Assembly: GCA_016699205.1 (NCBI GenBank)
Contig: CP064964.1
Coordinates: 300,001 to 332,000 of the forward strand
DNA from: Candidatus Saccharimonadota bacterium
GTDB lineage: Bacteria; Patescibacteriota; Patescibacteriia; 2-12-FULL-60-25
Reading direction: 5' to 3'
DNA: 32,000 bases
Shown: positions 3,456 to 26,798 of the stretch, one piece after another
Position numbering within the stretch: the first letter of the stretch is position 1
Layout: every line of letters begins with the position of its first letter
The notes under the pieces: generated by a model
Told to the model about the DNA's origin: nothing
The model's database searches: none
Seen by the model: only the letters and a program-made list of their open reading frames with translations
Translations under genes and position numbers: made by a program

Positions 3456-3512
3456 TCAGGAACCTCCTTGTGGGCTGCGATTAAATCACAGCCTGACGAG
3501 CGCGTCAATGGA

Positions 3513-3989: not shown

Positions 3990-4060
3990 TACCCACACTC
4001 CTTTCAAAGGTACGGAAGACATAGATTAACCGACGCTCTGCGATCCGACAAGGTGACAAT

Positions 4061-4933
4061 GTGCTACGCTTATCCCTATCTATGCATTGGGCAAAAATAC
4101 GATTCTTCCTGCGCTATATTCTTGTCATTATAGGCATAACGGTAGCGATTTTTCTTATTTGGCAGGCAACCAAACAAGTTCCGACGGAAGGCAACTGGCA
4201 AACTCCCCTATCCCGCTTGTCGACGGCGGAGTTTCATGGCGATCTGGTTACGGTAAAAAATGTGCGGAACTTTCAATACAAAGGCAGCGAGGAAGAGGCG
4301 GATCTTGTTCCGGGGTATTACGATAAAACCTATGATCTCTCCAAGGTTTCCAAGGTCTGGTATGTGAGCGAGCCGTTTAAAGAGATCAGTGTTGCTGCGC
4401 ATACCTTTCTTTCTTTTGAGTTCTCCAATGGCGATTATTTGAGCATCTCGATCGAGGCGCGAAAGGTTAAGGGTCAAAAATATCGCCTCTCGCTTGGGCT
4501 GCTGCGAACATATCCATTGATGTATATCGCGGCTGATGAACGAGATGCATTACTTGTGCGCGCCAATATCCGCAAAGATGATTTGTATGTTTATCCGGTA
4601 CGGACAACGCCGGAAAAAGGACGATTGCTCTTGGCTGATATTTTGCAGGAAATGAATCGTTTGGCGGAAAAGCCGCAGTGGTACAACACGGTTACGGATA
4701 ATTGCACCTCGCGCATTGCTTGGCATGTGAATCGCGTGACGCCGAACCGGATTCCAAATACGGCTTGGGAAGCTTATGTCACGGGTTATGCGGATGCCTT
4801 TGCGCTGAAGCACGGACTACTTGATACGGATCTACCACTTGATGAGGCACGCAAAAAATACCGTGTTACAGAACGATCGCAAGAAATTGGCGATCTACCA
4901 GATTATTCAAAACGGATTCGGGAATGGGATTAG
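4061..4933 (+). CDS. DUF4105 / Lnb-N-terminal-like membrane-anchored protein
   Basis: N-terminal TM helix (FFLRYILVIIGITVAIFLIW), then a periplasmic-type domain with the YNTVTDNCTS motif reminiscent of DUF4105. The start is either GTG 4061 (AAGGTGA upstream) or ATG 4082. Confidence 0.6.
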   Translation: MLRLSLSMHWAKIRFFLRYILVIIGITVAIFLIWQATKQVPTEGNWQTPLSRLSTAEFHGDLVTVKNVRNFQYKGSEEEADLVPGYYDKTYDLSKVSKVWYVSEPFKEISVAAHTFLSFEFSNGDYLSISIEARKVKGQKYRLSLGLLRTYPLMYIAADERDALLVRANIRKDDLYVYPVRTTPEKGRLLLADILQEMNRLAEKPQWYNTVTDNCTSRIAWHVNRVTPNRIPNTAWEAYVTGYADAFALKHGLLDTDLPLDEARKKYRVTERSQEIGDLPDYSKRIREWD

Positions 4934-7957: not shown

Positions 7958-9409
7958 CTACATCATCTTCTTGCGGATGAAAGCCGGGATTTCCAATTCA
8001 TCATCCTCGCTGGCTGCTTTTTTAGGCGCCGGAGCTGACTGAGGCGCTTGTACCGGACGCGGATTCATCGGCGCGTAAACCGGTTGGCTTACATGCGGCT
8101 GCTGGGCAGCAGGAGCTGGGGCCGGAGCCATCTGGCGTGGCGCTGGTGCTGGTGCCGGGGCCGGAGCTTCTTCTGCGATTTCCGGCTGTCGCTGCGCCTC
8201 TGCTTCATTTGGCTGATTACCAAATGAGTTCAGCATGTTGGAGAAGAATCCTCCGCCCTGCTGATTTGCGGCTGGGCGCGGATTCTGGATCGGCATGCGG
8301 TTCAATGGCTCCGCTGGAGGCGCTTCATTAACGTAAGAGCGCGGCTGTTGCTGCGACATCGGCGCTGGGTTCGGTTTGGCCGGAGCGGGCGCTTGAGCTG
8401 GGGCCGGCGTTGGAGCAGGAGCGAAATTTACTTTGGCTGGTTTGGCAGAAACGGAATTCTTTTCAAAGCCAGTGGCGATGACCGTAATCTTGATTTCATC
8501 CTTCATGCTCTCATCAAGAATCGTGCCCCAGATCATGGCGACATTTGGATCTGCGGCCTGGCTGATAATCTTGGCCGCCTCCGTAACATCCTGCATTGCG
8601 AGGTTGGAACCGCCGGTGACAATGAAGAGCACGGCTTTGGCGCCGTCCATCGAGACTTCAAGAAGCGGCGATGCGACAGCAGCTTTGGCGGCGTCGATCG
8701 CGCGGTTATCGCCATGTCCGCGACCAATACCCATGAGAGCGGAGCCGCGACCAGCCATGACAGTGCGCACGTCGGCAAAGTCGACGTTAATCAAACCTGG
8801 AACGGTGATCGCCTCGGAAATACCCTGAACACCTTGACGAAGAACGTCGTCGACGGTTTCAAAGGCTTCAACCAAAGAAGTCTTCCGGTCGATGATCTGC
8901 AAAATGCGATCGTTCGGAATCGTAATGATGGCATCGACTTGTCCGACGAGTTTTTCAAAACCTTGCTCCGCAATTGCGCGGCGCTGAGCACCTTCAAAAG
9001 CAAATGGCTTGGTAACAACAGCAACCGTGAGCGCGCCTACTTCTTTTGCGATCGCGGCAACAACAGGGCCTGCGCCTGTTCCGGTTCCGCCTCCAAGTCC
9101 GCAAGTTACAAAAACCATGTCCGTGCCTTTGAGAAGCTCGCGAATTTCATCCGCGCTCTCCTCTGCGGCACGCTGCCCGACTTCGGGGTTCATGCCTGCC
9201 CCCAAACCGCGCGTGACCGTTTTACCAAGATGTACTTTTAACGTTGCTTGTGATTTGTGGAGTGCTTGAACATCCGTATTCATGGCGACAAACTCGACGC
9301 CGCGAATTTTGGAAGCGATCATGCGATCGACAGAAGAACCACCAGAGCCACCGACTCCGATGACTTTGATCTTCGCAAATGTTTCGATATCAGGTTTGAC
9401 TTCAGCCAT
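7958..9409 (-). CDS. ftsZ: cell division GTPase FtsZ with a long Pro/Ala-rich C-terminal linker
   Basis: GVGGSGGSSV, NTDVQAL and GGGTGTGAGPVVA tubulin signature. C-terminal conserved peptide DDELEIPAFIRKK. About 150 aa of PAPAPA/Q-rich linker lies between core and tail. Confidence 0.97.
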   Translation of the reverse strand: MAEVKPDIETFAKIKVIGVGGSGGSSVDRMIASKIRGVEFVAMNTDVQALHKSQATLKVHLGKTVTRGLGAGMNPEVGQRAAEESADEIRELLKGTDMVFVTCGLGGGTGTGAGPVVAAIAKEVGALTVAVVTKPFAFEGAQRRAIAEQGFEKLVGQVDAIITIPNDRILQIIDRKTSLVEAFETVDDVLRQGVQGISEAITVPGLINVDFADVRTVMAGRGSALMGIGRGHGDNRAIDAAKAAVASPLLEVSMDGAKAVLFIVTGGSNLAMQDVTEAAKIISQAADPNVAMIWGTILDESMKDEIKITVIATGFEKNSVSAKPAKVNFAPAPTPAPAQAPAPAKPNPAPMSQQQPRSYVNEAPPAEPLNRMPIQNPRPAANQQGGGFFSNMLNSFGNQPNEAEAQRQPEIAEEAPAPAPAPAPRQMAPAPAPAAQQPHVSQPVYAPMNPRPVQAPQSAPAPKKAASEDDELEIPAFIRKKMM

Positions 9410-9600: not shown

Positions 9601-10866
9601 CTACGGGATGAACGATTTGAAAATCTTCTTGAGAGGATTGGTTGCTTTCTTCAGCCATTGATCTCCCGCTTGCAAGCCACCCATGCGTCCGGAGCCTGCC
9701 GGGTCTCGCTCGTCTTCAAATCCGTATAAAAGCAAACCGATCGCTGTTGAAAAAGCCGGGTCATGCAACACCTCGCCGAGCGGCGATGAGATCTGTGGAG
9801 CCGGCGACAATGAAGCCGGTAGGCGCAGTGTCGTACGGGCCATCTCAACCATACCGCGGAGCTTGGAGCCGCCGCCGGTCAGAATCGCGCCAGCTGGAAG
9901 CAAACCTGAGCGCTCAATTTTACGAAGTTCTGCTTCTACTTTTTCAAATAATTCTTCTACACGAGCCTGTGCAATTTCCGACATGAAGCGCGGGCTTACC
10001 AATTCTGCTTCTGCAGCGCCGATCTCGCGGAGATCGACCATGTCATATTGATTTACCCCTTCTGGAATAGCGCTTACAAAAGAACGCTTAGCTGCTTCCG
10101 CGACATCAAGCGATGTACGCAAACCAATAGCAATATCGTTTGTAATATGATCTGCGCCGATTGGGATAACGGAAGCGTGGAGTAGTTCACCGTCCTCAAA
10201 AACAGCTACCGATGTCGTGGATGCACCGATGTTTACGAGAACAACACCTAGCTCGCGCTGACGCGAGGTCACGACAGCATCAGCGGCGGCGAGCGGCGAA
10301 AAAACAAGGCCGCTTACATCGACATTGGTGCGCATGACGGCTTGCGTCAGGTTTTTGACATGGCTTGATAGCCCCTGGATCAAACAGACTTCTGCTTCCA
10401 GACGCACGCCTTGCATGCCGACCGGGTTGCGGACCCCTGGCTGATCATCGACCGTAAAGCGTTGAGGGATACGATGAAGTATTTCAAAATTAGCCGGGTT
10501 CGCATTGGCTGATGCCATGTCGAGCACGCGTGCCTGGTCCTCTTCACGAATCTCAGAATCTGGTCGTGAAACACCAACAACGCCTTTAACTGTCTTCGCA
10601 TGAACATGAACTCCCCCGATTCCGATATAGGCATCGTTGATCGGAACGCCGATTTGGCGCTCGACGCGATCGAGACAGGCGGAAACGGCGGCGGTTGCAT
10701 CGTCCAAAGATTTGATAGCGCCTTTGGAGATACCGGCGGATGGAACTTCTACCGCACCAATCAAATTGATCGTCTCGCGCTTATCCTGACCAACAACAAC
10801 TTGGCCAACCGCCAAACGAATGGCGGAGCTTCCTAGGTCGATGCCGGCGAGAATGCGGTCCTTCAT
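9601..10866 (-). CDS. ftsA: cell division protein FtsA
   Basis: Actin-fold phosphate-1 motif GIDLGSSAIRLAV, DITNDIA-type and GGGSKLRG motifs, and a C-terminal amphipathic helix (LKKIFKSFIP). ATGA overlap with dgkA. Confidence 0.93.
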   Translation of the reverse strand: MKDRILAGIDLGSSAIRLAVGQVVVGQDKRETINLIGAVEVPSAGISKGAIKSLDDATAAVSACLDRVERQIGVPINDAYIGIGGVHVHAKTVKGVVGVSRPDSEIREEDQARVLDMASANANPANFEILHRIPQRFTVDDQPGVRNPVGMQGVRLEAEVCLIQGLSSHVKNLTQAVMRTNVDVSGLVFSPLAAADAVVTSRQRELGVVLVNIGASTTSVAVFEDGELLHASVIPIGADHITNDIAIGLRTSLDVAEAAKRSFVSAIPEGVNQYDMVDLREIGAAEAELVSPRFMSEIAQARVEELFEKVEAELRKIERSGLLPAGAILTGGGSKLRGMVEMARTTLRLPASLSPAPQISSPLGEVLHDPAFSTAIGLLLYGFEDERDPAGSGRMGGLQAGDQWLKKATNPLKKIFKSFIP

Positions 10867-11237
10867 AAGCGCATGGCGATATCAGCGAGTTTTGGACCAA
10901 GAATCAACAAACCAAGGACCAGGGCAAACATGGCGGCCAAGAGCACGCTTCCGGCCATCAAATCTTTGATGTCACCGGCATATTCATGCAACCGAGGTTT
11001 TGCGAGATCAACAAGACGCTCCAAGCTACTGTTGAGCAATTCTAGCACCAGGACGAACATCGTCACAAGCAAAAGAATTGCTCGTTCCCAAAGGTCAAGC
11101 GGAAGAACGAATAAGACCACCATAACCACAAAAGCAGCTACGACCTGGAGTCGAAAACTGCGCTCGCTACGGAAAGCGAGGGCGAGGCCACGGAAGGCAT
11201 GGCCAAAACTACGGGCCAAAGACTTTAAGGCGCTCAT
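10863..11237 (-). CDS. dgkA: diacylglycerol kinase / undecaprenol kinase (DgkA family)
   Basis: 124 aa with three TM helices. Motifs FRSERSFR, LELLNSSLERLVD and IKDLMAGSVLLAA are typical of prokaryotic DAGK. Confidence 0.9.
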   Translation of the reverse strand: MSALKSLARSFGHAFRGLALAFRSERSFRLQVVAAFVVMVVLFVLPLDLWERAILLLVTMFVLVLELLNSSLERLVDLAKPRLHEYAGDIKDLMAGSVLLAAMFALVLGLLILGPKLADIAMRL

Positions 11238-11683
11238 ACGGATATGATTGCGTCCACGACGCGCTCTTGCAAGCCAAACATTTTTTCCTCTTCTTTGGCT
11301 GTTGCATGGTCAAATCCTGACAAATGCAAAACTCCGTGAGCGATTAAACGCAGCAGCTCTTCACGAAGCGTCATTCCGCGGCGAGCGGCTTCGCGTTTTG
11401 CATACGGAACACACACGACGATGTCGCCGAGGTAGTGCTCCGTTTTCAGGTGTCGGTTTTCAGTAGGGGCAGGGGCTGGGGAAAACGAAAGAACATCCGT
11501 CGGCTTATTCATGTGACGGAATGTTTTGTTTAATTTTTGCATCGCCAATTCCGTGACGAACGACAAGCTTGCCACTTTTTTGGAACGCGTACGCAAAACA
11601 CGCGCGAGTTCTTTTTCTAATTTGCGCATGTCTGCCGGTTTCAACATAGCCGGTAAACGATTGGCGAGTTCGATAACGATCAT
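11234..11683 (-). CDS. ybeY: rRNA maturation endoribonuclease YbeY
   Basis: Zinc motif HGVLHLSGFDH (Hx3Hx5H). Size is 149 aa. ATGA overlaps on both sides. Confidence 0.93.
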   Translation of the reverse strand: MIVIELANRLPAMLKPADMRKLEKELARVLRTRSKKVASLSFVTELAMQKLNKTFRHMNKPTDVLSFSPAPAPTENRHLKTEHYLGDIVVCVPYAKREAARRGMTLREELLRLIAHGVLHLSGFDHATAKEEEKMFGLQERVVDAIISV

Positions 11684-13002
11684 GGCGTCTGGGTCGTCGA
11701 AGTTGCCGACGAGGTTGTTGAAATAAAGTCACCTGGTCCTTGAAGTGCCGCGTTTACGATTTCCGGACTTAAAACCGGAGCACCGCTTAAGCGCAAGGAG
11801 TTCAGCATCATTTCAAAACTCGTTCGGAAGTTGATGAAAGGTTTGGTGCCGTTATCGTAGACGATCTTGAAGACTTTTCCGTCCCAGGCAAAGAACGCAT
11901 CGAGACGATCTGCGCCAAGCAAACCTTCCAAACCTCCCTTTGTCGTAATCGCGCGCGGACCCGTGGATGGAACACCCGGATTGGCCGCCAAATACCATTC
12001 AAGCAGCGATTGACCCTGAGCATTGTCGACAAGCTCGATGCGATACGTTTCACCTTGACCGGAGCGAACCGTTGCCCTGGATCCGTCCGTTGCATCGAGA
12101 CTTGAGGTCCAACCCTTTGGTACAAAGATCGACCAGCCAGCTGGAGAAACGAATGGCGTCACGAGGCCGGAGTCGACCAAACGGACAGGGGCGGTGGCAC
12201 CTGGGTTATAGAGATGAAACACTTCGTTACCATCGAGGAAGCCGTCGCGGTCGGTGTCTGGAACGCGTGAGTCGGTGCCGAAGACCGTTTCTTCAATATC
12301 AGACAAACCATCCGAGTCGGAATCGAGGCCGCCAGGCGGCAAGCTTGGCACAACCGGGGCAGGGATCGTGGAGGCAACATCGACATTTGCTTCGTTTGAT
12401 GGCGATGACTCTCCGCCTGCGCCGATCGCGATCACACGATAGGAATAGGATCGACCAGCTTGAACGCTTACGTCGAGGAAGCTCGTGCTATTAGAAGGAA
12501 GGTTGGTGACCGGAACATAGGTAGCAGCTGTTTCTCGGCGCTCTAATCGATAGCCCGTCTCATCGCCAGCTGTATCAATCCATGCCAAGGCCACGGCGGT
12601 TGTGCCGCTAGCGATCGACGCTGTGAGGTTAGAGGCGGCGTTAGGAGGCGTACGAACGACCACCGGAGGTGTAACAACTGGCTGTGTGGGCGGCTTGAAC
12701 AACAGGTCGCGGTTGAACCAGACAAAGCCGCCTACAACCAAGAGCAAAAGGATGATGATGAGTACAACAAAAGGCCAGATCGGGCGCTTTGGCAGCGGAC
12801 CAGGCATCGGGGCTTTGGCAGGCGGTGGAACAACCGGTTTTGGTAGGGCCGACTTTTCCATCTCGGCTTGCGTCTTTCCCTCCATCTTCAAAGCCATGCC
12901 ATAGTATTTTTCTGGCATCACGACAATCTCCGGTCCTGCATTAGCAGGACCGGATGTTGGCGGCTGTTGAGCGGGAGCGCCTGGAGGCGGAGGGGGCAAC
13001 AT
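11680..13002 (-). CDS. single-pass membrane protein: Pro-rich N-tail, FN3 domain, thrombospondin-type-3 repeats, unassigned C-domain
   Basis: MLPPPPPGAP... tail. TM helix WPFVVLIIILLLLVVGGFVWF. FN3 pattern (ALAWIDTAGDETGYRLERR...SYSYRVIAIGAGGESSPSN). TSP3 DxDxDG repeats (DSDSDGLSD...DTDRDGFLDGNE). Confidence 0.75.
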   Translation of the reverse strand: MLPPPPPGAPAQQPPTSGPANAGPEIVVMPEKYYGMALKMEGKTQAEMEKSALPKPVVPPPAKAPMPGPLPKRPIWPFVVLIIILLLLVVGGFVWFNRDLLFKPPTQPVVTPPVVVRTPPNAASNLTASIASGTTAVALAWIDTAGDETGYRLERRETAATYVPVTNLPSNSTSFLDVSVQAGRSYSYRVIAIGAGGESSPSNEANVDVASTIPAPVVPSLPPGGLDSDSDGLSDIEETVFGTDSRVPDTDRDGFLDGNEVFHLYNPGATAPVRLVDSGLVTPFVSPAGWSIFVPKGWTSSLDATDGSRATVRSGQGETYRIELVDNAQGQSLLEWYLAANPGVPSTGPRAITTKGGLEGLLGADRLDAFFAWDGKVFKIVYDNGTKPFINFRTSFEMMLNSLRLSGAPVLSPEIVNAALQGPGDFISTTSSATSTTQTP

Positions 13003-13005
13003 AGT

Positions 13006-13854
13006 TTAGAGTGTGCAGTCAGGCTTGGAGCATTTACCTTCTCCACGAGGATTGTAGCCGTTCTTGATTTCTGCTCCGTCATCGTAGGTATCGCGGTCGG
13101 TGTCGCGGTTTAGAGGATTCGTGCCATACTTCATGACCTCATCGCCATCACTCGCTCCGTCTACATCTGAATCTGGTTTTGCCGGATCGAGACCAAGCTC
13201 GGTTTCACGACGATCGGATAATCCGTCTCCATCCGCATCAGCTTCTGCCTGCATCGTGGTTGTGGGAACTTCATCGACTGGCGGCGGATCATTGGTAACA
13301 CTGGTCGGAAGAGGGATACTGACGCCGTCTGGAGGAGTTGTGACTGGAGGAAGGATCGGCGTTGGTTCAGGTGTTGGTGTTACGGCTGGCGCAGATGCAG
13401 GTGCGGAAGGAACCGGCGTAGGTGTTGTTGGCTGTGGCGTCGGCGTTGTCGTTGTTGATGGTCGTGTTGGCGGCGTGATCACGGGCGGAGTTACCGGCGT
13501 ACGAATCACGAACCACCAAAAGGCGAATCCCGCACCAGCGACAACAAGCAGAACAACGACGATGATTGCAAAAATTCTTCCGTAAGAAACATGGTGGACG
13601 ATCTCTGGCGCAAGCGGTGCTGACGGACGTGCGCCCATACCAGAACTACCCGGCTTCTCCATGTTGGAGAAAATATCCTCTGGCTCTGCTACGCCCGGCT
13701 TGGGCGCAGGTACTGGAGCAGGAGCGGAAGGCACAATTGGCGGTGCTAAAGGCGGAGCCGTGGGCGGTGTTGGCGGGGGCGGCGGAACAGAAGAGCTAGC
13801 CCGAGCCGGAGGAGGCGTCAGCGGTTCAAATGGAAGATTTGCAGGAGGGTTCAT
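13006..13854 (-). CDS. single-pass membrane protein with Pro-rich tail, Pro/Thr linker and TSP3 calcium-binding repeats
   Basis: About 95 aa of Pro-rich N-terminus. TM helix IFAIIVVVLLVVAGAGFAFWWFVI. PT-rich stalk. DADGDGLSD, DSDVDGASDGDE and DTDRDTYDDGAE repeats. C-terminal NGYNPRGEGKCSKPDC. Confidence 0.75.
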   Translation of the reverse strand: MNPPANLPFEPLTPPPARASSSVPPPPPTPPTAPPLAPPIVPSAPAPVPAPKPGVAEPEDIFSNMEKPGSSGMGARPSAPLAPEIVHHVSYGRIFAIIVVVLLVVAGAGFAFWWFVIRTPVTPPVITPPTRPSTTTTPTPQPTTPTPVPSAPASAPAVTPTPEPTPILPPVTTPPDGVSIPLPTSVTNDPPPVDEVPTTTMQAEADADGDGLSDRRETELGLDPAKPDSDVDGASDGDEVMKYGTNPLNRDTDRDTYDDGAEIKNGYNPRGEGKCSKPDCTL

Positions 13855-13885
13855 AGGGCAGGTGTCAGTGATCGGTGGTCAGGGA

Positions 13886-14626
13886 TCAGGGAATACATGT
13901 CTCGCGAGCGCAGCGGCCTGGACCAAGCGGATTATACCCTGATTGTACCTCGCTACCGTCTTTAAAGGTGTCATTGTCACTGTCGGCACGGAGCGGGTCG
14001 GTTTTATAGGTTTCAACTTCTTGGCGATCCGTGAGTCCGTCTCCATCCGTATCAGCATTGTTTGGATCCGTACCGACATTTCTTTCCTGTTCTATCGTGA
14101 GGCCATCGCCGTCGGCGTCGGGACTTGGAGTTGCTGCCGCTGGCGCCTCGGGCTGAGACGGTGTTGTTGGCGAGGAGGTCACGGATCTCGTTGATGAGAC
14201 CGTAGAGAGACGGCGATTCGTTTCTTCAATTCTCTTTTCCACCGCCCCTGCATCCGCCTGCGTTGGATTTGATTTAAGAACGTTTACTTCTTCCGCGTCA
14301 TTATACCCGTCGCCATCCGTATCCCCTTCTGCCGGGTTAGATCCAAGCTGCGCTTCTTGATCATCGCTCAAGCCGTCACCGTCGGTATCTTTTGGCATTG
14401 CTGCTATGCGCTCAAGCTCCTGTTCTGCCAACCGCGAACGCTCTGCATTCATTTGACCATTTCCAACCGGTACGAGGACCGCAGGACCAGAAGGCGTGTT
14501 GATCGTCGTGATCGGCTGCAGATCCGCGGTAGCTCGGATGCGAAGAAGCACGACAAGAATAATAAGACCGACAACGGCTATGCCGCTGAGGATCGAACCG
14601 ATAATAATGAGTTGTTTTCGTTCCAT
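13886..14626 (-). CDS. single-pass membrane protein with two blocks of TSP3 calcium-binding repeats
   Basis: N-terminal TM helix LIIIGSILSGIAVVGLIILVVLL. DTDGDGLSDDQE, DTDGDGYNDAEE, DADGDGLTIEQE, DTDGDGLTDRQE and DSDNDTFKDGSE repeats. C-terminal SGYNPLGPGRCARETC. Confidence 0.75.
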   Translation of the reverse strand: MERKQLIIIGSILSGIAVVGLIILVVLLRIRATADLQPITTINTPSGPAVLVPVGNGQMNAERSRLAEQELERIAAMPKDTDGDGLSDDQEAQLGSNPAEGDTDGDGYNDAEEVNVLKSNPTQADAGAVEKRIEETNRRLSTVSSTRSVTSSPTTPSQPEAPAAATPSPDADGDGLTIEQERNVGTDPNNADTDGDGLTDRQEVETYKTDPLRADSDNDTFKDGSEVQSGYNPLGPGRCARETCIP

Positions 14627-14629
14627 ACA

Positions 14630-17600
14630 TTAGGATCCTGGGCTTTGAACCGGGCCAGGCAATGGTACGCCTTCCCCTGGGAAGGTGTCTCCGTATTGAT
14701 GAGAACCATTACACAGCAGCAAGCCTCTGCCAGCGCCAGGGATCGTGATAGCTCCGCTACCGGCCTCCTGTGAGAACACGTGCCAATATTTACCCTTGCG
14801 GTCCAGCGGCTCATCCGAACATCCGGCATCGGTCGGAACACTTGTCGGAGGCTTCACAACGAAAAGGCGATCTTCCGTTACGATGCGCACCGTCGTCGAG
14901 ACACTCTCAAAATATTGGTAGGAAGGAATGCTGGGCGTGATGGTCGGGGACCAATCGACCAAATAATATCCGTAGCGGCCGGTTAGCGCCCAAGTTCCAC
15001 GTTTGTACTTAATGGTTTGAGGAGAGACATCAAAGCTGCCGCAGCCTACTGATCCATCACTGTGGAAACAGGCGAGGAAGCCATGTGGGTTTGCGCCATC
15101 AATATCCGGATTTCCTGGGCCGCCATAGTAGATGTCGCGCGTTGGTGCCATCGCCGTAGGCAATGTCACATGCGCATCGGTGAATCCGCCTGGCGGCAAT
15201 TCACCGTTCCATGTCTGGATGACGAGCGTCTCATCGCGGCCAACGCGGGGGGCGAGATAGATTTTGCCCTCCGTGTCATTGATACCGCGCGACAAGAAGT
15301 TATTATATCCGAATGTCTGCGACTCAAATGGCCAGTAACCGCCGTTACGAGCCTCATCTGGAGCTGTCAAACCTGAGGGCCAAATCTGACCTCTACACTC
15401 TGGGCGACCTGATGCATTACCCGTACACGGATTATCCTGATAGTAGTCGACGACGATGCGGTACTGAGAACAGGCTGCGACACGGTTGATGTTGTTGAAT
15501 CTGAATGTTCCGTCTGAGCCTGTATAGGTCTCACCGATGCGAACGCCTCGGCTGTAGAGCGTTACGCGAGCGTTTGGAACTGGCTGGTTGGAGTAGATGG
15601 CGTCGAAAACTTGGGCCGTAATTTCGCCGTCACCCTCTTCCTCGCTGCATCGAGCACAACCGTTGAATCCACAACCCGTATTACAACTTACTTGATCACC
15701 TCGCGGATCATGAGGTGTTGCGCACAAGGTGCCTGGAGCACAAGTGCTCGCGTTAGGCATACAAGCCGCTTCTGCGCCGATCGCAGGGAGCGCAGCGCGC
15801 GTCAAGCTTCCCGGAACCGATTCCGTATCCGTTGTGATGCTGAATCGACACAAACCGATATCAGAGATAGAGGTGGCATTACGGTTTACGCAGACAATTT
15901 CACCCGTTCGCGTGTCTCGAATATACGGATAGTGCGCGCAAGAGACCTCTCTCGCATAGTCGTAGCCGAGCTCGCGACAAGAAGGCGTCGGATCATTTGT
16001 CGTTGCCGGGTCTCCATCAAAGTCTGTGCGATCACACTGTTCAGGACCTTCTTTTACGGCGTTACCGCAGAATCCACCGGAACTAGCAACTTGGCGGCAC
16101 GTTGCGGAACAAGAGAGACAGGTCGATCCGTAGTCGGCATCACATGAGAGCGTGCCGTTTCTTGGGCCATTATCACATTCTTCTGTTCCAACGTTTACAA
16201 AGTTGTCGCCGCAGATATTGCGCTTACACAAGCTCGTGCAAGAATCGGTGTTGTTGCGGTTACCATCATCACACTCCTCTGCCGGATCGACGCGGCCATC
16301 GCCACAGGAACCGATTGGCTGACATGCTGACCAGTCATTGAATGAACAGGCATCGGCTAGAGTGGTATCACTCTTACAGGAACGGACGCGCTGTGTTGGG
16401 TATTGAATACAGGACCCTTCATCGCGTGTCGGAACGGTGAGGAGACAGTCAGCGTTGGTCGTACAGCTGTCGTCGAGCAAGCTATTTCCATTCATGTCGT
16501 TGGAACAAAGTCCAAGTGTTCCGGTACAGGCAAGCAACGCTCCAGCACCAGAGCCGCCACAAGTGAAGCCGGCGCCACAGTCGGCGTTGGTGTCACATGG
16601 CGAGAAGCGATTTGGTCCGTCGATACAGAGGGCTTTATTGGAAGCCTGTGTGTTTCCATCACACTGTTCATTTGGAGCGGTGATCGAGCCATCGCCACAG
16701 TAGGGAGCTGGTCCGCGGCAGTCGATGCTGCACGTTGAAGCCGGCGAACAGGTTCCAGGGGCACAGTACTGGCCGTTGGAAGCACCTTGATCGCAGGATT
16801 CGCCTGGCGAGAGACGACCATCACCGCAGTAGGCATCAAAGCCGGTACAGGTGCGGTTGCAGCGGCCGTAGGTTCCGTTCAAAGCTCCATCGTCACAGGT
16901 TTCTGGGACAGCGAGCGCCGTACAAACGATACTGGAAGATGCGGCATCGCGAGGATCGCGACACTCCTCTGCTGAACCCGGCGTGTTACAAGCTTGGCCA
17001 TAGCGGAAGCCGGCGCCACCCAAACACTGGTTGCGGTCGAGACGGCCGTTTCCACAGAGCGCGTTGGCGACACAGATACTTGAAGGCGAGTCGACGAAAG
17101 ACGTACAGCGATCACAGACTTGGAGCTTGGTTCCGCTTGGAACAGCGGCTGTGGAACAAGCGGCCGGGCGCGTATCGCCTACTTCACAAATTTCACCAGG
17201 ACCGATGACGCCGTTACCACAGATGGAATCGTTGCCGAATGAGCTGCCGTCACACAATCCGCCATATCTCCAGCTACCGCCTGTTGCGACACAGCTACCC
17301 GTTGAAAGCGGAGGGCCGCCAGGACCTGGGACCGTACAGTCGGAATCGACATTACAAACGGAATCGATGTTGGTACAGCGGCGGATTTCCGAAAGAAGGC
17401 GCGGTCGATAGCGGTCAGCAGACGGACCCTCCAATTCCGTGGAAAGCTCATAGCGCTGACCAGCGTTCAATGCGCGGTATTGATAGATGCGGGATACCGA
17501 GTGCTGGTTCAGATCTCCATACAAGGAGCACCGCCCGTTGCACAAATACCACAAGTTAAGAAACGGTTGACCGGATCTGCCGGAGGCGTTGTACCAAGCT

Positions 17601-17632
17601 CGGCGGTGAAGGCGCCCTGCCAGCTCGGCCAA
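14630..17632 (-). CDS. cysteine-rich repeat surface protein, probably the C-terminal part of a split giant gene
   Basis: At least 7 CG[ND]G/CGDN...GE.CD.GN units (for example SCGDGRVDPAEECDDGNRNNTDSC). A CarboxypepD_reg-like module (ARVTLYSRGVRIGETYTGSDGTFRF), then a beta-rich unassigned C-domain. The ORF has no ATG for about 380 codons and no signal peptide, and the tracked 'M' is a TTG inside the preceding ORF. The start is therefore unresolved. Confidence 0.7.
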   Translation of the reverse strand: MAELAGRLHRRAWYNASGRSGQPFLNLWYLCNGRCSLYGDLNQHSVSRIYQYRALNAGQRYELSTELEGPSADRYRPRLLSEIRRCTNIDSVCNVDSDCTVPGPGGPPLSTGSCVATGGSWRYGGLCDGSSFGNDSICGNGVIGPGEICEVGDTRPAACSTAAVPSGTKLQVCDRCTSFVDSPSSICVANALCGNGRLDRNQCLGGAGFRYGQACNTPGSAEECRDPRDAASSSIVCTALAVPETCDDGALNGTYGRCNRTCTGFDAYCGDGRLSPGESCDQGASNGQYCAPGTCSPASTCSIDCRGPAPYCGDGSITAPNEQCDGNTQASNKALCIDGPNRFSPCDTNADCGAGFTCGGSGAGALLACTGTLGLCSNDMNGNSLLDDSCTTNADCLLTVPTRDEGSCIQYPTQRVRSCKSDTTLADACSFNDWSACQPIGSCGDGRVDPAEECDDGNRNNTDSCTSLCKRNICGDNFVNVGTEECDNGPRNGTLSCDADYGSTCLSCSATCRQVASSGGFCGNAVKEGPEQCDRTDFDGDPATTNDPTPSCRELGYDYAREVSCAHYPYIRDTRTGEIVCVNRNATSISDIGLCRFSITTDTESVPGSLTRAALPAIGAEAACMPNASTCAPGTLCATPHDPRGDQVSCNTGCGFNGCARCSEEEGDGEITAQVFDAIYSNQPVPNARVTLYSRGVRIGETYTGSDGTFRFNNINRVAACSQYRIVVDYYQDNPCTGNASGRPECRGQIWPSGLTAPDEARNGGYWPFESQTFGYNNFLSRGINDTEGKIYLAPRVGRDETLVIQTWNGELPPGGFTDAHVTLPTAMAPTRDIYYGGPGNPDIDGANPHGFLACFHSDGSVGCGSFDVSPQTIKYKRGTWALTGRYGYYLVDWSPTITPSIPSYQYFESVSTTVRIVTEDRLFVVKPPTSVPTDAGCSDEPLDRKGKYWHVFSQEAGSGAITIPGAGRGLLLCNGSHQYGDTFPGEGVPLPGPVQSPGS
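16020..17380 (-). repeat. array of Myxococcus-type cysteine-rich repeats (protein level)
   Basis: Read in translation: CGNGVIGPGEICE, CGNGRLDRNQC, CGDGRLSPGESCDQG, CGDGSITAPNEQCDGN, CGDGRVDPAEECDDGN, CGDNFVNVGTEECDNG, CGNAVKEGPEQCD. Confidence 0.7.
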
Positions 17633-20600
17633 CGGCTGTTGCTCATGGTCTGCAAGAAGGAACCGGTCTGAAGATCAGGATATTTGCTTGTGCGTTCTTT
17701 GACGGACTCAAGCGAGTCGCTCATGCGCTGGAAGTCGGCGATGCGCTTGATGTCGCGCTGCATCTTGGTCTTGAAGCTGGCACAGCGGAGATTACGGTTC
17801 TGATTGAGACATTCCCAATCTGCCGTACAGGCAACAGAACGACCATCGGCACCGCGGAATGACTCACCGGCTACACGAGCGCCATCGGCCAAAGCGTAAA
17901 CACAGGCGTTCTGCGAATCTTCTTGCAGGTTTACGTTCAGGACAAAATTCTTGACCATCTGATCAAAAATATCGATCGTTTCTGGCTGTGCGTCCGGATT
18001 GCGGGAGATAACGTAAATATTTGGATAAATATCGCCGGAAGCGAGACCTGTCGTGTTTACAGCGCCGATGTAGACCGTGTTGCCATCTTGAACCGCTTCG
18101 TAACCATCGACCGTGATCGCTTTTGGCGAACCGGAGAAACCCTTGGAGGCGTACCAAGCAGATGGCGACTGGTGAAGTGGGTTGGCAACGATACGGATAC
18201 CGATACCATCGCCGCGGAGAGATGGTTCATTGAAGGTAAAGAGATATTGGCGAAGAATTCCGAGACCAGCGTCAACCGGAGACGGAGCCACACCCGCGAC
18301 ATCCATCGCTGGAAGATCATCCGCTGTACCGGCAGCGTTTTTGTCGCGGCAGTAGAGCGTCGAGAAGTTGTAGTAGACACCGCTTGCGGCAAATGTTGGT
18401 TCGTAGAGAGCAAGCGAATCGGAATCAAGACTGTCCGAGAATGGTGCGACGGTGCGTGCTGGCCACGGATTTTCACACAAAAGCACGGTCGCGAGTTCAC
18501 TGCCGCGAATAATACGATTCGTTGACGACGGAACCGTGATTTCATCGTGCGTGATACGGATGCCTGTTGAGACATACGCCGTACCGTTTTTGTTACGGGC
18601 GGCACCGGTTGCGCGGACAGGATCAGCACCCGGGGTTACACCGAGAATCGTGTCATCGGATGTGTTCCAGAGATCCCAAGTCCAGTCATATTCTGCGACC
18701 GTTGAGAGCGGGACGTTGCGTCCATCCTGCAAAGAAACCGGAACAGCCGTGTATGGATGCTCTTCCGCTGGAGCGACGTACAAGTTTGGATGCTCCGTGC
18801 TTAGATCGCGGACATCGATAGAGGAAACGGTACAGATGTTTGCGCCTGTGCGGAAATTCCACTGGATCGGGCCGTTGGATACGACGCCACGGAAGGTGCG
18901 GACACCATCCCTAACGGCCGGATTATCGAGCAAGTCATTGTCGCCGCGGAAGGTGATGCGGTATTCCGTATTTGGCTTGAGTGCACGCTCAAGCGAGAAC
19001 GTTACGATAGAACCCGTGCTCGTATTACTGGAATCGATGTTGAGGCGGCCGCGCACTTCTCCGACACAGAAGACATCGGCGTTGGCTGGCTGAGCGTTGA
19101 ACATCGAGATGAAATTCACCCAAGCCTTCTGCCACCATGGCAGGCCGGTTGTATCGATCTGCATGACGGTCGTGGTTGTGCCTGCGGGACAGACCGCTGC
19201 TGCGCCAACGATACGTTCAGCCACGACAAAGTTGGCGCGTACCGAACCTTCGTCGAGACGTGTGTTGAAATTAGCGGTGATGAGCGCGTTGCGGCAGATA
19301 CCCGTGCCGGTCGGAAGGGCTGGCGGATATTGCGAAACAACGGTGGGACGAGGGGCGCAGCAGCCGTGATCGTCGAGGCCGGTTCCGGCAGGACAAGATG
19401 ATTCTTGTGTGAATCCACACTGCAAGCCGTACGTTGCATTGCCCGTCTTGTCATCGTAGACAGCGCGGACGGTGGAGAGCATGCGGCCATCGGTATCCGG
19501 TTCACGATCACCAACAATTTCTGCGAGCTGGAGCGCGTCCGGCAAACCATCGCCAGAAGCGACTTCACAAGAGTTGATTTCACCCGGACCCGTGACGCCG
19601 TCGCCGCAGAATGAAGGGGTTCCGTAGTCTGGAGACGAGCCTTCCGCGAGACAGGTTGCGCTACAGCCGTCACCCTGGTTGCGATTGCCGTCGTCACAAT
19701 CCTCCCCTGCTCCGATAGAGCCGTTGCCACAGCAGTTACCAGCACCAGAACCCGAGCATGCTGACGTACCAGTTCTCAAACACGTTGTCGTGTCGCAGCC
19801 AGCCGGGAATACGCCGCCGACGCGGTCACAAGTTTCGCCTGGCTCAACCGTACCGTTACCACAAAGTGCGAGCACAGCTGAAGAACCCTCGTGGAGACAG
19901 ATCGAGCTGCAGCCGTCGCCGTTTGCGGTGTTGCCGTCGTCACAAGCTTCACCATCGCCAATGGAATTGTTTCCACAGGTTGAGCCGCCTTCGCTTGAAC
20001 CAAGAAGCTGACAGTCGCTGAAACAACCAGGCGTGGTTGAGGATGCCGCGCCAGGATCACATTGTTCACCGCGATCAAGAAGACCGTTGCCACAGCTTCC
20101 ACCGACAAGAGGACGCCACAAACAGCTTGAGTTACAGCTTGCGGATGGCGAACCATCATCACACTCTTCTCCGCCTCGTGAACCCGGAGGCAGTAAACGA
20201 CAGGCGTCGCCGTGAATCGTGCGGCAGCCTACAGCGCCAGCGCCCGAAGTCGCACATGCGCCGCTACCGGCTGCGTTGCGGCAGTAGTTGGCATCCGTTG
20301 TTTCAACAACGCGGTTTCCACAAGAAGCGACGCGGCCATCGAGACCAGCGGCTCCGCGCGGTGTGCAGCGATTTGAACAACCCGGACCAATCGCAGGATT
20401 TGTATCAACAAGACCATCGGCGACGGTAGAGCCATCGCCACCGTTTACGAATTTGGACACGGTTGGCGTCTGTTCAATCGACCAAGCAAAGGTGCGATCA
20501 ACGATCAGGGGCTCGCCTTCTGCGTTACACGAGTTGGCGCCGGAACGAGGCGTGGCCGTGAATGACTGACGTTCACCAACGGTTGTCTCGATCTTTTCTC

Positions 20601-23067
20601 CTGGAACCATCACGACAGCCTCGACGGTACAGCGGGCATTGTCGCCATCCTTCACACGGAAAATCCATGAGAAGCCTTCCGGGTCATTCAAGCCGGTGAG
20701 CGGGAGACCGGAGCGAGAGCGGAAGGAACCCATGCCGCCCAAAACCGTCATCTTGTAGAATCGTCCGCGCTGCAAAAGCGTTTCCGGAACGCCACCCGCA
20801 CCCGGACGTGTCGGCTCAATCACGAGATAACGAAGAGATGTATCGCCTGCCGGAGCGCCTGGGAGAGCAGTTAGACGGATCGGTGAAGCGCTCAAATCGA
20901 CGGTATCTTCAAAGGTGCGACAATTTTCATTGGTACACAATCGCAAAATAACATTATCGGTGTCGACGCTAGCCGCATCCATCGGAACGTTGAAGCGAGC
21001 CCAAATTGCTGCGTTCAAACAAGCTTCATCACAATTTGGTCCGTATGACTCGATCTTTGGAGGAACGAGACGGATAAAGAGATCGCCGCGACCATTGACC
21101 GAGCGGCCGCCGGAGACCGTGGATGCGTTTACGCGGACCGGATCAGCGCCGGTTTCTGCGTTGGAAGTGACAACCTGATTTTCTGAGACACGGCCGGCGA
21201 CGGAGTTATTCGTAACAGATGCGCGGCCATCGCTCGTGGTCCAAGACCAGTTGTAGACATCGCCACGCAAGACGATACAGGCATCATCTGCGGCTCGAGG
21301 GACGGCGTTGTAGTCTTGATCGATACCGACATCGTCCATGGTATGAGGTGATGGAACGACGTTGATCGAACCGACTTCACACAATGTTCCGGCCGTACGC
21401 GTTGTAAATGTGAAACAGTAAGCATTGCCGGAGCCACAATCATCCGCGTTCTCTCGCATCGGAACGTTGGTTGATGACTGGATGCCGGTCGTCAAAATAA
21501 CTTGGTACGTCGCGACGCCATCCCAAAGAGCGGCGGAGCGGAAACGAATGAAGCCTTGGCCGTCGCTTTCACCGATTTGCGGATAACCGGCGGCTGGTGA
21601 AACAGGTACGGTCGTCGTACATGGCGTTGCACCACCAGCGGTACATTGACGAATGACGAGGCTGGCTGTCGCACCGGAAATCGTGACGGTTGAAGCATTG
21701 AGCGGCGTGTTGAAACGAATGTAGATATCCGAGTTCACACATGCATTGTCACCACCGGTGCGGCCGGACCATGGGGACGGAGATGGCGGTCTTAAATCAC
21801 TACACTCTTCAATGACTCGCGGGTTAACCGGGAGAATACCGCTTGAAAGACGCCATGCGAACATCGCTGATGGCGAGGAGGCTGGACAAACACCGCTGCT
21901 ATCCGAACAGGCACCGCTGCGGCAGCAAACCGATCCGGCGACGGAACAGATGGAAGCATCTTCATTACAGTTACGAACGGCAAAATTTACCGAGTTTGAT
22001 GATTGGCCGGAGACACTCAAATTCACTTGTCCTGTGATCGCGGCTGTTGGTACGCGCGTGTCGACACGCGATGAGGTCCAATCCCCTGCGGTTACAACGG
22101 ATGGGACGCGCGTAGCGCCAGAGCCCGCGAATGTGACGGTTCCATCACCTCCAAAACGCTCACCGATCAAAGCGACTTCCGTATCAACCGGGCCAGCGAC
22201 CGGAACAATGGCACAAATACCTGGGCGAGGTGTTGCGGTGTTTACGACAAAAGGCAATGTATTGCTGCGAACCGTGTCCTGACGCTCAACCTCGACCTGA
22301 TAGGTTCCAGGCGACATGGCTTCATCGCCAAGACCGGCACGGATGGTGCGTGGAACTTTGACCGTGATCGTCGTATCAGACCAGAACGCGACGGAACAGG
22401 CGGCAGGAAAATCCGTGTCAGCGATCGCGACATCGGATGCGCCACGACGCAAGTACACGCGACCAACGCGTGAACCGAAGTTGCGGCCTTGAATCGTTAC
22501 GTACTCGCTAACAGGACCGTTATCTGGCGAGAGACTGACGATTTCCGGACCAGCCGTGACCGTGCGCTCATTAATACGATACGCAACGCTGTTGGAAAGG
22601 ATTCCGCCAGAACGAGCTGTTACGGCGTAGCTTGCCGGAGAAATAACCGGAGCATTGAGGGCGATACGATCATCAGCCCATGACAAGAAGGAAGAAATTT
22701 CTCGGTCGTTGAAGAAAACGCGATCCGATGAAGCACCGAGACCTGTACCAACGAGATCGGTGCGCTCCCCCGCCAAACCATTATTAGGATCAGCGGCACA
22801 CAAACCTGGGCGAGCAACATCGTTTACATCAAATGGATCGAGGCGCGGACCGCGATCATCGTTGGAAATATCATTTAAACCAGCTGCGTTGATGAGTTGG
22901 ATTGGGCCGTCAACAGCACCATCTGGAACGGCGACAACAACCTGCGTACGGGACCAGGTCGGGATACCGGCGGCGACACAGGCGGCAGGAGCGGTTGCGA
23001 CTTGGCCGTCGGCAAAGATGATCTGGCCGGTTGAGCTACCAAAGTTAGAACCGGAAATCGTTACCAA
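17509..23067 (-). CDS. giant cysteine-rich surface protein (IPT/TIG, SbsA/Big_5-like Ig modules, Cys-rich repeats); coding signal continues upstream to 23154
   Basis: 1852 codons. Four IPT/TIG-like modules (VTISGSNFG, TDLVGTGLG, VTIQGRNFG, VALIGERFG). Ig-like modules with the I.IRFN.P[LM][DN]..[ST]V pattern. Six CG[ND]G..GE.CD units. The tracked start is a TTG in the middle of an IPT module, and no signal peptide is present. Confidence 0.8.
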   Translation of the reverse strand: MVTISGSNFGSSTGQIIFADGQVATAPAACVAAGIPTWSRTQVVVAVPDGAVDGPIQLINAAGLNDISNDDRGPRLDPFDVNDVARPGLCAADPNNGLAGERTDLVGTGLGASSDRVFFNDREISSFLSWADDRIALNAPVISPASYAVTARSGGILSNSVAYRINERTVTAGPEIVSLSPDNGPVSEYVTIQGRNFGSRVGRVYLRRGASDVAIADTDFPAACSVAFWSDTTITVKVPRTIRAGLGDEAMSPGTYQVEVERQDTVRSNTLPFVVNTATPRPGICAIVPVAGPVDTEVALIGERFGGDGTVTFAGSGATRVPSVVTAGDWTSSRVDTRVPTAAITGQVNLSVSGQSSNSVNFAVRNCNEDASICSVAGSVCCRSGACSDSSGVCPASSPSAMFAWRLSSGILPVNPRVIEECSDLRPPSPSPWSGRTGGDNACVNSDIYIRFNTPLNASTVTISGATASLVIRQCTAGGATPCTTTVPVSPAAGYPQIGESDGQGFIRFRSAALWDGVATYQVILTTGIQSSTNVPMRENADDCGSGNAYCFTFTTRTAGTLCEVGSINVVPSPHTMDDVGIDQDYNAVPRAADDACIVLRGDVYNWSWTTSDGRASVTNNSVAGRVSENQVVTSNAETGADPVRVNASTVSGGRSVNGRGDLFIRLVPPKIESYGPNCDEACLNAAIWARFNVPMDAASVDTDNVILRLCTNENCRTFEDTVDLSASPIRLTALPGAPAGDTSLRYLVIEPTRPGAGGVPETLLQRGRFYKMTVLGGMGSFRSRSGLPLTGLNDPEGFSWIFRVKDGDNARCTVEAVVMVPGEKIETTVGERQSFTATPRSGANSCNAEGEPLIVDRTFAWSIEQTPTVSKFVNGGDGSTVADGLVDTNPAIGPGCSNRCTPRGAAGLDGRVASCGNRVVETTDANYCRNAAGSGACATSGAGAVGCRTIHGDACRLLPPGSRGGEECDDGSPSASCNSSCLWRPLVGGSCGNGLLDRGEQCDPGAASSTTPGCFSDCQLLGSSEGGSTCGNNSIGDGEACDDGNTANGDGCSSICLHEGSSAVLALCGNGTVEPGETCDRVGGVFPAGCDTTTCLRTGTSACSGSGAGNCCGNGSIGAGEDCDDGNRNQGDGCSATCLAEGSSPDYGTPSFCGDGVTGPGEINSCEVASGDGLPDALQLAEIVGDREPDTDGRMLSTVRAVYDDKTGNATYGLQCGFTQESSCPAGTGLDDHGCCAPRPTVVSQYPPALPTGTGICRNALITANFNTRLDEGSVRANFVVAERIVGAAAVCPAGTTTTVMQIDTTGLPWWQKAWVNFISMFNAQPANADVFCVGEVRGRLNIDSSNTSTGSIVTFSLERALKPNTEYRITFRGDNDLLDNPAVRDGVRTFRGVVSNGPIQWNFRTGANICTVSSIDVRDLSTEHPNLYVAPAEEHPYTAVPVSLQDGRNVPLSTVAEYDWTWDLWNTSDDTILGVTPGADPVRATGAARNKNGTAYVSTGIRITHDEITVPSSTNRIIRGSELATVLLCENPWPARTVAPFSDSLDSDSLALYEPTFAASGVYYNFSTLYCRDKNAAGTADDLPAMDVAGVAPSPVDAGLGILRQYLFTFNEPSLRGDGIGIRIVANPLHQSPSAWYASKGFSGSPKAITVDGYEAVQDGNTVYIGAVNTTGLASGDIYPNIYVISRNPDAQPETIDIFDQMVKNFVLNVNLQEDSQNACVYALADGARVAGESFRGADGRSVACTADWECLNQNRNLRCASFKTKMQRDIKRIADFQRMSDSLESVKERTSKYPDLQTGSFLQTMSNSRWPSWQGAFTAELGTTPPADPVNRFLTCGICATGGAPCMEI
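19560..20400 (-). repeat. array of Myxococcus-type cysteine-rich repeats (protein level)
   Basis: Read in translation: CGNRVVETTDANYC, CGNGLLDRGEQCDPG, CGNNSIGDGEACDDGNTANGDGC, CGNGTVEPGETCD, CGNGSIGAGEDCDDGNRNQGDGC, FCGDGVTGPGEINSCE. Confidence 0.7.
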
Positions 23068-23154
23068 GGTGCCTGGACGTCCATCTGGAGGCGTGATGCG
23101 GGAAATGATCGGCTGCTCTACACAAACACCACCGGAGCAGACGCCGCTCGCACA

Positions 23155-26756: not shown

Positions 26757-26792
26757 AGAAAAACAAAACACTCCGCCATAGGCGGAGTGTTT
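26757..26792 (-). terminator. Rho-independent terminator after rpsU
   Basis: AAACACTCCGCC / GGCGGAGTGTTT 12-bp stem (26766-26792), followed on the minus strand by TTTTGTTTTT. The plus side is also T-rich, so it may act in both directions. Confidence 0.75.
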
Positions 26793-26798
26793 TGAATT

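Follow-up and report, generated by a model that had tools for sequence, protein, structure and literature searches.

Bitopic proteins with TSP3 repeats and conserved tail motifs in an invariant gene block between a giant pilin-anchored surface protein and ftsA-ftsZ of Patescibacteria

A stretch of 32,000 nucleotides (nt) of contig CP064964.1 (positions 300,001 to 332,000, from a Candidatus Saccharimonadota bacterium; hereafter the window) encodes three consecutive membrane-anchored proteins, here called P1, P2 and P3, which lie between a giant surface-protein gene and the genes ybeY, dgkA, ftsA and ftsZ. It was found that this order of genes is kept in essentially every related genome examined. 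Judged from their sequences, P2 and P3 are the conserved core of the block, each combining a short, highly conserved motif on a putatively cytoplasmic tail with one transmembrane (TM) helix and thrombospondin type 3 (TSP3) repeats, and P1 is a clade-specific member. It is tentatively proposed that P2 and P3, together with P1, may be the membrane-embedded, calcium-binding base or connectors of a class-wide surface apparatus that also contains the giant protein, a reading that we regard as plausible, if somewhat short of probable.

In the open reading frame (ORF) reading of the window, P1, P2 and P3 are three ORFs arranged head to tail on the minus strand. The stop of the upstream ORF lies only 3 nt from P1; the gap from P1 to P2 measures 31 nt and that from P2 to P3 again 3 nt. 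The end of P3 coincides with the start of ybeY in an ATGA overlap (11680-11683). These coordinates agree with the first-pass annotation of this DNA, which had described three tandem ORFs of 246, 282 and 440 amino acids (aa) with the same gaps and overlap. Among relatives, the three positions are referred to as slots A, B and C, and the median gaps are 19.5 nt (A-B), 9 nt (B-C) and 8 nt (C-ybeY). A hydropathy scan detected a single hydrophobic segment in each protein (residues ~6-28 in P1, ~93-116 in P2 and ~76-97 in P3), and a motif count gave five DxDxDGxxDxxE loops in P1, three in P2 and two in P3, with a period of 22-23 residues, in agreement with the earlier claim of one TM helix and such repeats in each. 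The Pro-rich tails that had been quoted for two of the three proteins are likewise present at the N-termini of P2 and P3. The features of the three proteins are as follows.

13886-14626, minus strand: P1, 246 aa, slot A
14543-14611, minus strand: P1 N-terminal signal-anchor helix, residues ~6-28
14258-14389, minus strand: P1, two TSP3 loops, residues 80-123
13916-14125, minus strand: P1, three TSP3 loops and GYNPLGPGRCxxxxC end, residues 168-244
13006-13854, minus strand: P2, 282 aa, slot B, core member
13822-13854, minus strand: P2 N-terminal MNPPANLPFEP motif, putative cytoplasmic tail
13666-13686, minus strand: P2 EPEDIFS motif, putative cytoplasmic tail, residues 57-63
13507-13578, minus strand: P2 TM helix, residues ~93-116, followed by a Pro/Thr linker
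13039-13239, minus strand: P2, three TSP3 loops and Cys pair, residues 206-280
11680-13002, minus strand: P3, 440 aa, slot C, core member
12889-12933, minus strand: P3 tail motif PEIVVMPEKYYGMAL, putative cytoplasmic tail, residues 24-38
12712-12777, minus strand: P3 TM helix, residues 76-97
12385-12639, minus strand: P3 FN3 domain, residues 122-206
12202-12324, minus strand: P3, two TSP3/EF-hand-like loops, residues 227-267
11743-12189, minus strand: P3, predicted PsbP/Mog1-like domain, residues 272-420, followed by a Ser/Thr-rich end

A scan of one genome per species yielded 79 distinct loci. In essentially all of these, tblastn with the window proteins showed the order giant gene, P1-like, P2-like, P3-like, ybeY, dgkA, ftsA, ftsZ, nrdR, (htrA) and pyk. 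The giant gene lies upstream in 64 of the 65 loci with enough upstream sequence, and ybeY-dgkA-ftsA-ftsZ follow in order in 62/64, each of the two exceptions lacking one weak match. Identities across the loci fall as low as 31% for P3, 26% for the giant protein and 44% for pyruvate kinase. With the P3-type protein of a Buchananbacteria-labelled genome as a new starting point, a walk towards more distant relatives added nine further contexts with the same block order, labelled Kerfeldbacteria, Magasanikbacteria, 'Nomurabacteria' or Patescibacteria; most represent more distant lineages, and two are found on megabase-scale records (CP060223.1 and CP129476.1). The distant order reads (lepB-hisS-HIT-S21)-yqeY, a pilin-anchored giant protein (1407-4201 aa), a TSP3 protein, a P3-type protein, ybeY, dgkA, ftsA and ftsZ. 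Gene order beyond ftsZ differs between lineages, so that the stretch yqeY-ftsZ is more strictly preserved than what flanks it. By label, the block is carried, always in this order, by ~70 species-level genomes of Uhrbacteria, Magasanikbacteria, Kerfeldbacteria and Buchananbacteria, which probably form one class-level clade. Many of the block-carrying records (among loci L004-L078) are titled 'uncultured Gammaproteobacteria bacterium', and single ones Vicinamibacterales, Binatia or Verrucomicrobiae; these titles look mislabelled.

The Pro-rich stretches in the tails of the slot B and slot C proteins vary freely in length and sequence among orthologues, and each tail carries a short conserved motif. 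The C-tail motif, (E)(P)(E)-I-x-(V/T)-(I/M)-P-(E/D)-(K/Q)-(F/Y)-(Y/R)-G-x-A, or EIxV(I/M)PEKFYG in short, occurs in 64 of 68 sequences, with its Pro conserved in 100%, its Ile in 88% and its F/Y in 100%. The B-tail motif, K-E-P-(E/D)-D-(I/M)-F-(A/S), or KEPEDIF in short, occurs in 65/68, with Asp and Phe conserved in 100%; in addition, many B proteins begin with MFDxxPxNLPxEP, and PxNLP is found within the first 60 residues of 40 of the 68. When 1.56 Mb of sequence (86 related loci and the window, i.e., 87 sequences) was translated in six frames, the C-tail motif occurred 70 times; in the long loci, 38 of 42 plus-strand matches stood at the start of the C gene, and the opposite strand gave only two. 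The tail peptides of P2 and P3 had no meaningful sequence match in Pfam or the Protein Data Bank (PDB). Conserved motifs on otherwise unconstrained tails may be read as the signature of partner docking sites, and the high conservation of these motifs points to a specific intracellular partner for P2 and P3, of which a passive spacer would have no need. The earlier suggestion that the Pro-rich tails contact cytoplasmic partners is strengthened in a revised form: the short embedded motifs are conserved, the Pro-rich sequence itself is not.

The orientation of the proteins was assessed by counting lysine and arginine (K+R) in the 15 residues flanking the TM helix, in ~62 orthologues each of the P2 and P3 types. 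In P3-type proteins the mean count is 3.08 on the N-terminal side vs 1.52 on the C-terminal side (N>C in 41, the reverse in 10), and in P2-type proteins 2.13 vs 1.49 (N>C in 34, the reverse in 14). Because of this K/R excess on the N-terminal side, P2- and P3-type proteins are predicted to be single-pass type II proteins with the N-terminus inside and the C-terminus outside. Cysteines in the orthologues are almost all C-terminal to the TM helix. In all proteins in which their location is known, FN3, TSP3 and PsbP-like modules lie outside the cytoplasm. By the positive-inside rule, then, the TSP3 repeats would face outwards and the P2 and P3 tails would lie in the cytoplasm, as had been supposed.

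TSP3 repeats were identified in P1 and P2 with the Pfam TSP3_bac profile (PF18884), for which the gathering score of 25 bits was used as the cutoff: P1 scored 107.7 bits (E=2.4e-31) over four stretches, and P2 29.9 bits (E=4.8e-7). In P3, the two loops starting at residues 227 and 249 keep DxDxDGxxDxxE invariant across 40 homologues. P1 and P2 also have a module in common, consisting of three TSP3 repeats that end in GYNPxGxGxCxxxxC (49% identity, E=4e-18). By this resemblance P1, in the clade of the window, is paralogous to the P2 ectodomain, and its C-terminal module, being homologous to that of P2, should share the P2 compartment. Across the 62 loci and the distant ones, slot B proteins have a tail of ~40-150 residues ahead of a single TM helix, and beyond it a low-complexity linker and two to three TSP3 loops; P2 itself has an overall Pro content of 22%. 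The slot A proteins of the same set are N-terminally anchored and 80-330 aa long, with TSP3 repeats in some clades. The content of the slot varies among the loci L013, L016-L042 and L081-L086: one subclade has an anchored protein of 80-126 aa that lacks TSP3 repeats, a second subclade has a Cys-rich protein (265-330 aa), and from several lineages labelled Kerfeldbacteria or Nomurabacteria the gene is absent. The three proteins had first been treated as a unit; this holds for P2 and P3, but not for P1, which is variable or absent in other lineages.

P3 is the most elaborate of the three. Its FN3 module, already claimed from the sequence, has a Pfam match (PF00041, E=2.6e-7, 31.2 bits against a cutoff of 25) and is confirmed by a structural model with pLDDT >90 over residues 122-208 and by Foldseek matches to titin and fibronectin FN3 domains with target-normalised TM-scores of 0.7-0.83. 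A Foldseek search with the full-length P3 model returned FN3 matches only. The C-terminal domain, modelled alone with 40 homologues (pLDDT 88, pTM 0.81), matched in the PDB BT_1490, cyanobacterial and plant PsbP (CyanoP), Mycobacterium tuberculosis Apa, Tsi3 and DcrB, with a probability of 1.0 for the best matches and E-values from 5e-4 to ~0.1. It is predicted to be a Mog1/PsbP-like alpha-beta-alpha sandwich, with a moderate resemblance at the level of the fold. No Pfam family, including PsbP and DUF1795 relatives, matched this domain at E up to 10, and a sequence search of the PDB gave nothing meaningful, only four chance-level matches with E 0.44-1.5. Proteins with the PsbP, Mog1p, DcrB or Apa-LpqN fold (Foldseek probability 1.0, E 5e-4 to 6e-3) are mostly extracytoplasmic protein-binding modules; in P3, unlike in them, such a domain is combined with TSP3 repeats and a membrane anchor, and it does not belong to these families at the sequence level.

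Full-length homologues of P3 number 257, down to 45% identity, and carry only the names 'fibronectin type III domain-containing protein [Candidatus Uhrbacteria]' or 'hypothetical'. The C-terminal domain alone matches 571 representatives, each standing for one 50%-identity cluster, and is always C-terminal in proteins of ~280-500 aa. Among the 112 full-length representatives, a TM helix is present in 109, a TSP3-like loop in all 112 and the strict tail motif in 77. In slot C proteins, the tail and a single TM helix precede a spacer that varies, then two TSP3 loops, the conserved ~150-aa C-terminal domain and a Ser/Thr-rich end; the spacer is an FN3 domain in the clade of the window only. In other lineages (L073 and L081-L086) the spacer is a long Asn/Thr-rich low-complexity run (NTNTN...), and the P3-type protein of L084 (539 aa) has an extra domain inserted between the TM helix and the TSP3 repeats.

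The genes around P1-P3 in the window stand in the same order as in the relatives, and the placement of the three between the giant gene and ybeY-dgkA-ftsA-ftsZ is as had been described. The members of the block, together with a paralogue of the giant gene, are as follows.

26300-26737, minus strand: yqeY, upstream boundary of the conserved block
24372-26270, minus strand: 632-aa paralogue with T4SS_pilin anchor and Big_5 domains, upstream of the giant gene
14630-24375, minus strand: giant surface-protein gene, directly upstream of P1
11234-11683, minus strand: ybeY, ATGA overlap with the P3 stop
10863-11237, minus strand: dgkA (prokaryotic diacylglycerol kinase), 4-nt overlap with ybeY
9601-10866, minus strand: ftsA, SHS2/1C domain and C-terminal amphipathic helix, candidate partner of the tail motifs
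7958-9409, minus strand: ftsZ, long Pro/Ala/Gln linker and canonical C-terminal peptide EDDELEIPAFIRKKMM

The giant protein starts with a VirB2-like T4SS_pilin anchor, which is followed by Big_7, TIG, Big_5, DUF4215 and CarboxypepD_reg modules. What had been taken for separate giant adhesin ORFs proved, upon alignment to relatives, to be fragments (406, 1852 and 1000 aa) of one gene, which in the relatives is a single ORF of ~2800-3300 aa with all the domains of the window fragments. The first break is an in-frame TAA at 23155-23157, where the closest relative has Met and a distant one Gln; the second is a change of frame near 17515-17539 with a gap of ~32 residues. These breaks may be genuine, may reflect heterogeneity within the population or may have arisen in the assembly. 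Shortened giant ORFs also occur in the loci L013, L032, L033 and L060, from metagenome-assembled genomes. The stop of the 632-aa paralogue overlaps the start of the giant gene by 4 nt; the paralogue is present in only some relatives (L047 and L055), there upstream of the giant ORF.

All genes of this neighbourhood lie on the same strand: upstream of P1-P3 the genes of the two T4SS_pilin-anchored proteins and, beyond these, yqeY, hisS and lepB; downstream ybeY, dgkA, ftsA, ftsZ, nrdR, an HtrA-like protease gene and the pyruvate kinase gene. The space between hisS and yqeY contains a strong terminator-like hairpin (26764-26794, minus strand; 14 bp, G+C-rich, with a T run after it), the sole strong site of this kind that the coding strand has from 7.4 to 27 kb; from yqeY to ftsZ no strong terminator was found. 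Given the conserved overlaps, the tiny gaps and the lack of a strong terminator, the block from yqeY to ftsZ is probably co-transcribed, and yqeY may be the start of a very long transcription unit. A promoter scan remained at chance level (10 sites found vs 10.5 expected), and no RNA family or tRNA was detected in the region. The unusually long Pro/Ala linker noticed earlier in FtsZ is present as a Pro/Ala/Gln-rich stretch of ~150 aa; FtsZ measures 387-489 aa among relatives, so that the length of the linker is variable. Farther out, the window holds an ORF of 400 aa (29152-30354, minus strand) and one of 221 aa (3468-4133, plus strand) without Pfam match, an EVE-domain protein at 30368-30778 and an Lnb_N-domain protein at 4061-4933.

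In the proposed apparatus, the giant Ig/TIG-repeat protein with its VirB2-like pilin anchor would be the main extracellular component. Outside the cell, P1-P3 would display tandem EF-hand-like TSP3 loops, putatively calcium-binding, to which P3 would add its FN3 spacer and a predicted PsbP/Mog1-like protein-binding domain. Inside, the disordered tails of P2 and P3 would present the docking motifs KEPEDIF and EIxV(I/M)PEKFYG, respectively, and the two proteins would in this way tie the surface structure to a cytoplasmic partner across the membrane. Since one tightly packed block extends from yqeY to ftsZ, P1-P3 would be made together with the division proteins. FtsA is an attractive candidate for the partner of the tail motifs. 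A comparable arrangement is known from Myxococcus, in which CglD and MtsD (gliding focal adhesions, cell-cell cohesion) likewise carry tandem TSP3 loops on surface proteins that work alongside a large adhesin system. CglD and MtsD are the best NCBIfam matches of P1-P3, but the matches to the CglD, MtsD and GltJ equivalogs are all under cutoff (51.9 vs 400, 34 vs 800 and 29.7 vs 450 bits, respectively) and cover repeats or Pro-rich sequence only; moreover, CglD is a lipoprotein of >1100 aa from a diderm, without cytoplasmic tail or TM anchor.

The trio and the pilin-fused protein do co-occur beyond this genome (64/65 loci and nine further contexts), and no lineage with the trio apart from the giant gene or from ftsA-ftsZ was found among those examined. 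The view that the trio is accessory to an adhesin locus gains from this co-occurrence, but ybeY-dgkA-ftsA-ftsZ are equally constant neighbours (62/64), and since gene order never varies, comparative genomics cannot discriminate between a role in adhesion, in division or in neither. Several points weigh against the proposed apparatus. The link between the trio and the giant protein is one of adjacency, which fits equally well a frozen gene order that includes the unrelated nrdR, htrA and pyk; the giant protein is practically devoid of TSP3 repeats and of any recognised domain that would pair with them; and in the window its gene is interrupted and the trio is intact. The K+R counts around the P1-type helix (1.88 on the N-terminal vs 2.26 on the C-terminal side) leave its orientation ambiguous. 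The profile check proposed for the TSP3 repeats succeeds for P1 and P2 but fails for P3, the repeat region of which reaches, alone, 18.8 bits, i.e., under the cutoff. This region is also modelled with low confidence, with a helix predicted after each loop, and the Foldseek TM-scores of the C-terminal domain are moderate (top matches ~0.45-0.5, with Tsi3 and DcrB below these). With its two ~22-residue segments, each an EF-hand-like DxDxDG loop and then a predicted helix, P3 resembles the dockerins of cellulosomes, which are also used at the cell surface; unlike these, it has no dockerin Pfam match, only weak EF-hand matches and no identified cohesin-like partner.

The first alternative is that P2 and P3 are lineage-specific proteins of the divisome or of envelope growth, with motifs that bind FtsA (or FtsZ) and ectodomains that act on the wall or septum, the giant protein being a separate matter or merely positioned by them. 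We consider this unlikely, though attractive. It would account for the position of ftsA-ftsZ two genes downstream on the same strand in 62/64 loci and 9/9 further contexts, and for bitopic proteins with conserved short motifs on cytoplasmic tails. A bitopic layout with a short conserved cytoplasmic motif is that of FtsN, FtsQ, PilN and MapZ; PilN contacts the actin-like PilM through its N-terminal peptide, as does FtsN, through its tail, subdomain 1C of FtsA. The FtsA of the window has both an SHS2/1C domain and a PilM_2 match (30.9 bits). With PilN/PilO-PilM and FtsN-FtsA, P2 and P3 have in common a conserved short motif, predicted to be cytoplasmic, ahead of a single TM helix and an extracytoplasmic domain, as well as genes in a row near an FtsA/PilM-family gene, and the I-x-h-h-P pattern of the P3 motif (I-x-V-(I/M)-P) loosely resembles the INLLP of PilN, a lead only. 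Unlike PilN, in which the motif is at the extreme N-terminus, P3 has it at residues 24-38, reading EIVVMPEKY, 30-50 residues from the TM helix.

Other observations speak against a divisome role. The Pfam scan detected no POTRA, SPOR, PilN (PF05137), PilO or DivIVA-type domain in P1-P3; ybeY and dgkA separate the trio from ftsA; and the tail peptides lack a sequence match in the PDB. Two more specific candidates were considered. P3 as FtsQ, encoded like it by a bitopic gene upstream of ftsA, was ruled out, as it has no POTRA domain and its C-terminal fold is PsbP-like, not FtsQ-like. P2 as a mimic of the FtsZ C-terminal peptide is unsupported: its motif, which reads EPEDIFSNMEK, is unlike the C-terminal peptide of the organism's FtsZ (EDDELEIPAFIRKK; the protein ends EDDELEIPAFIRKKMM).

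A second alternative, which we likewise hold to be doubtful, is that P1-P3 are general calcium-binding envelope spacers or structural wall proteins, specifically tied neither to the giant protein nor to division, and that the gene order is a historical accident in small genomes that are rarely rearranged. In its favour, synteny also covers the unrelated lepB, hisS, yqeY, nrdR, htrA and pyk. The TSP3 repeats of P2 furthermore match those of unrelated TSP3 proteins, among them OmpA-family members. The latter, found among the weaker P2 matches, carry TSP3 linkers and thus have TSP3_bac repeats in an envelope protein in common with the trio, but they consist of a beta-barrel and an OmpA peptidoglycan-binding domain in the outer membrane, without a single-pass anchor, cytoplasmic motif, FN3 or PsbP-like domain. 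In Bacillus subtilis, rpsU-yqeY and ybeY-dgkA are a few genes apart on one strand, and the slot between yqeY and ybeY holds other membrane-protein genes. By this analogy, the giant-B-C unit was most likely inserted into an old yqeY...ybeY-dgkA neighbourhood. Since the unit may just occupy that slot, a functional tie to YbeY is unnecessary, and the proposed coupling to ybeY stands as a conserved position but not as a functional relation. An accident of gene order is less easily reconciled with the preservation of the yqeY-ftsZ core where the flanks downstream of ftsZ have changed, with the conservation of very tight spacing and overlaps, or with highly conserved cytoplasmic motifs that point to a specific intracellular partner.

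A more far-reaching combination is that the P2 and P3 motifs dock on FtsA and that the calcium-dependent ectodomains hold the giant protein, so that the Z-ring and the surface structure are coordinated. This is quite unlikely; if true, FtsA-docking P2 and P3 would constitute a lineage-specific divisome module without counterpart in model bacteria and might replace missing canonical late-division proteins. Least probable, and in our view very improbable, is that the trio serves to assemble or anchor the VirB2-like pilin domain. As accessory components of a type IV secretion-like structure co-opted for the cell surface, P1-P3 would then help in the insertion, polymerisation or retention of the pilin-anchored giant protein and the 632-aa paralogue. 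Both upstream proteins begin with a T4SS_pilin domain, VirB2-like pilins are widespread in the candidate phyla radiation (CPR) and, according to bioRxiv 10.1101/2025.01.22.634366, a cultured Saccharibacterium has a pilin array that is essential, but neither VirB4, VirB6 nor any other type IV secretion component was found in the window or related loci, and the trio has no similarity to known parts of such systems. The paper on type IV secretion systems in Patescibacteria describes no pilin-fused giant proteins and no such trio.

In the literature searched so far, an incomplete search, no description of the block, of the family architecture or of the two motifs was encountered. The domains are of known kinds; apparently new are the invariant block, the two motifs and a protein family defined by a tail motif, a TM helix, TSP3 repeats and a PsbP-like domain. 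Patescibacteria (CPR), nearly all of them uncultured, account for much of the diversity of bacteria, and in genomes as tiny as theirs most of the genes that are conserved should matter. That the block is unchanged in every genome examined, across several candidate phyla by label, argues for the giant protein being a core envelope component and not a dispensable adhesin. The two short peptide motifs lend themselves to direct binding tests with FtsA, FtsZ or another partner, and, should this partner be the divisome, cell division would be linked with surface architecture in a new way.

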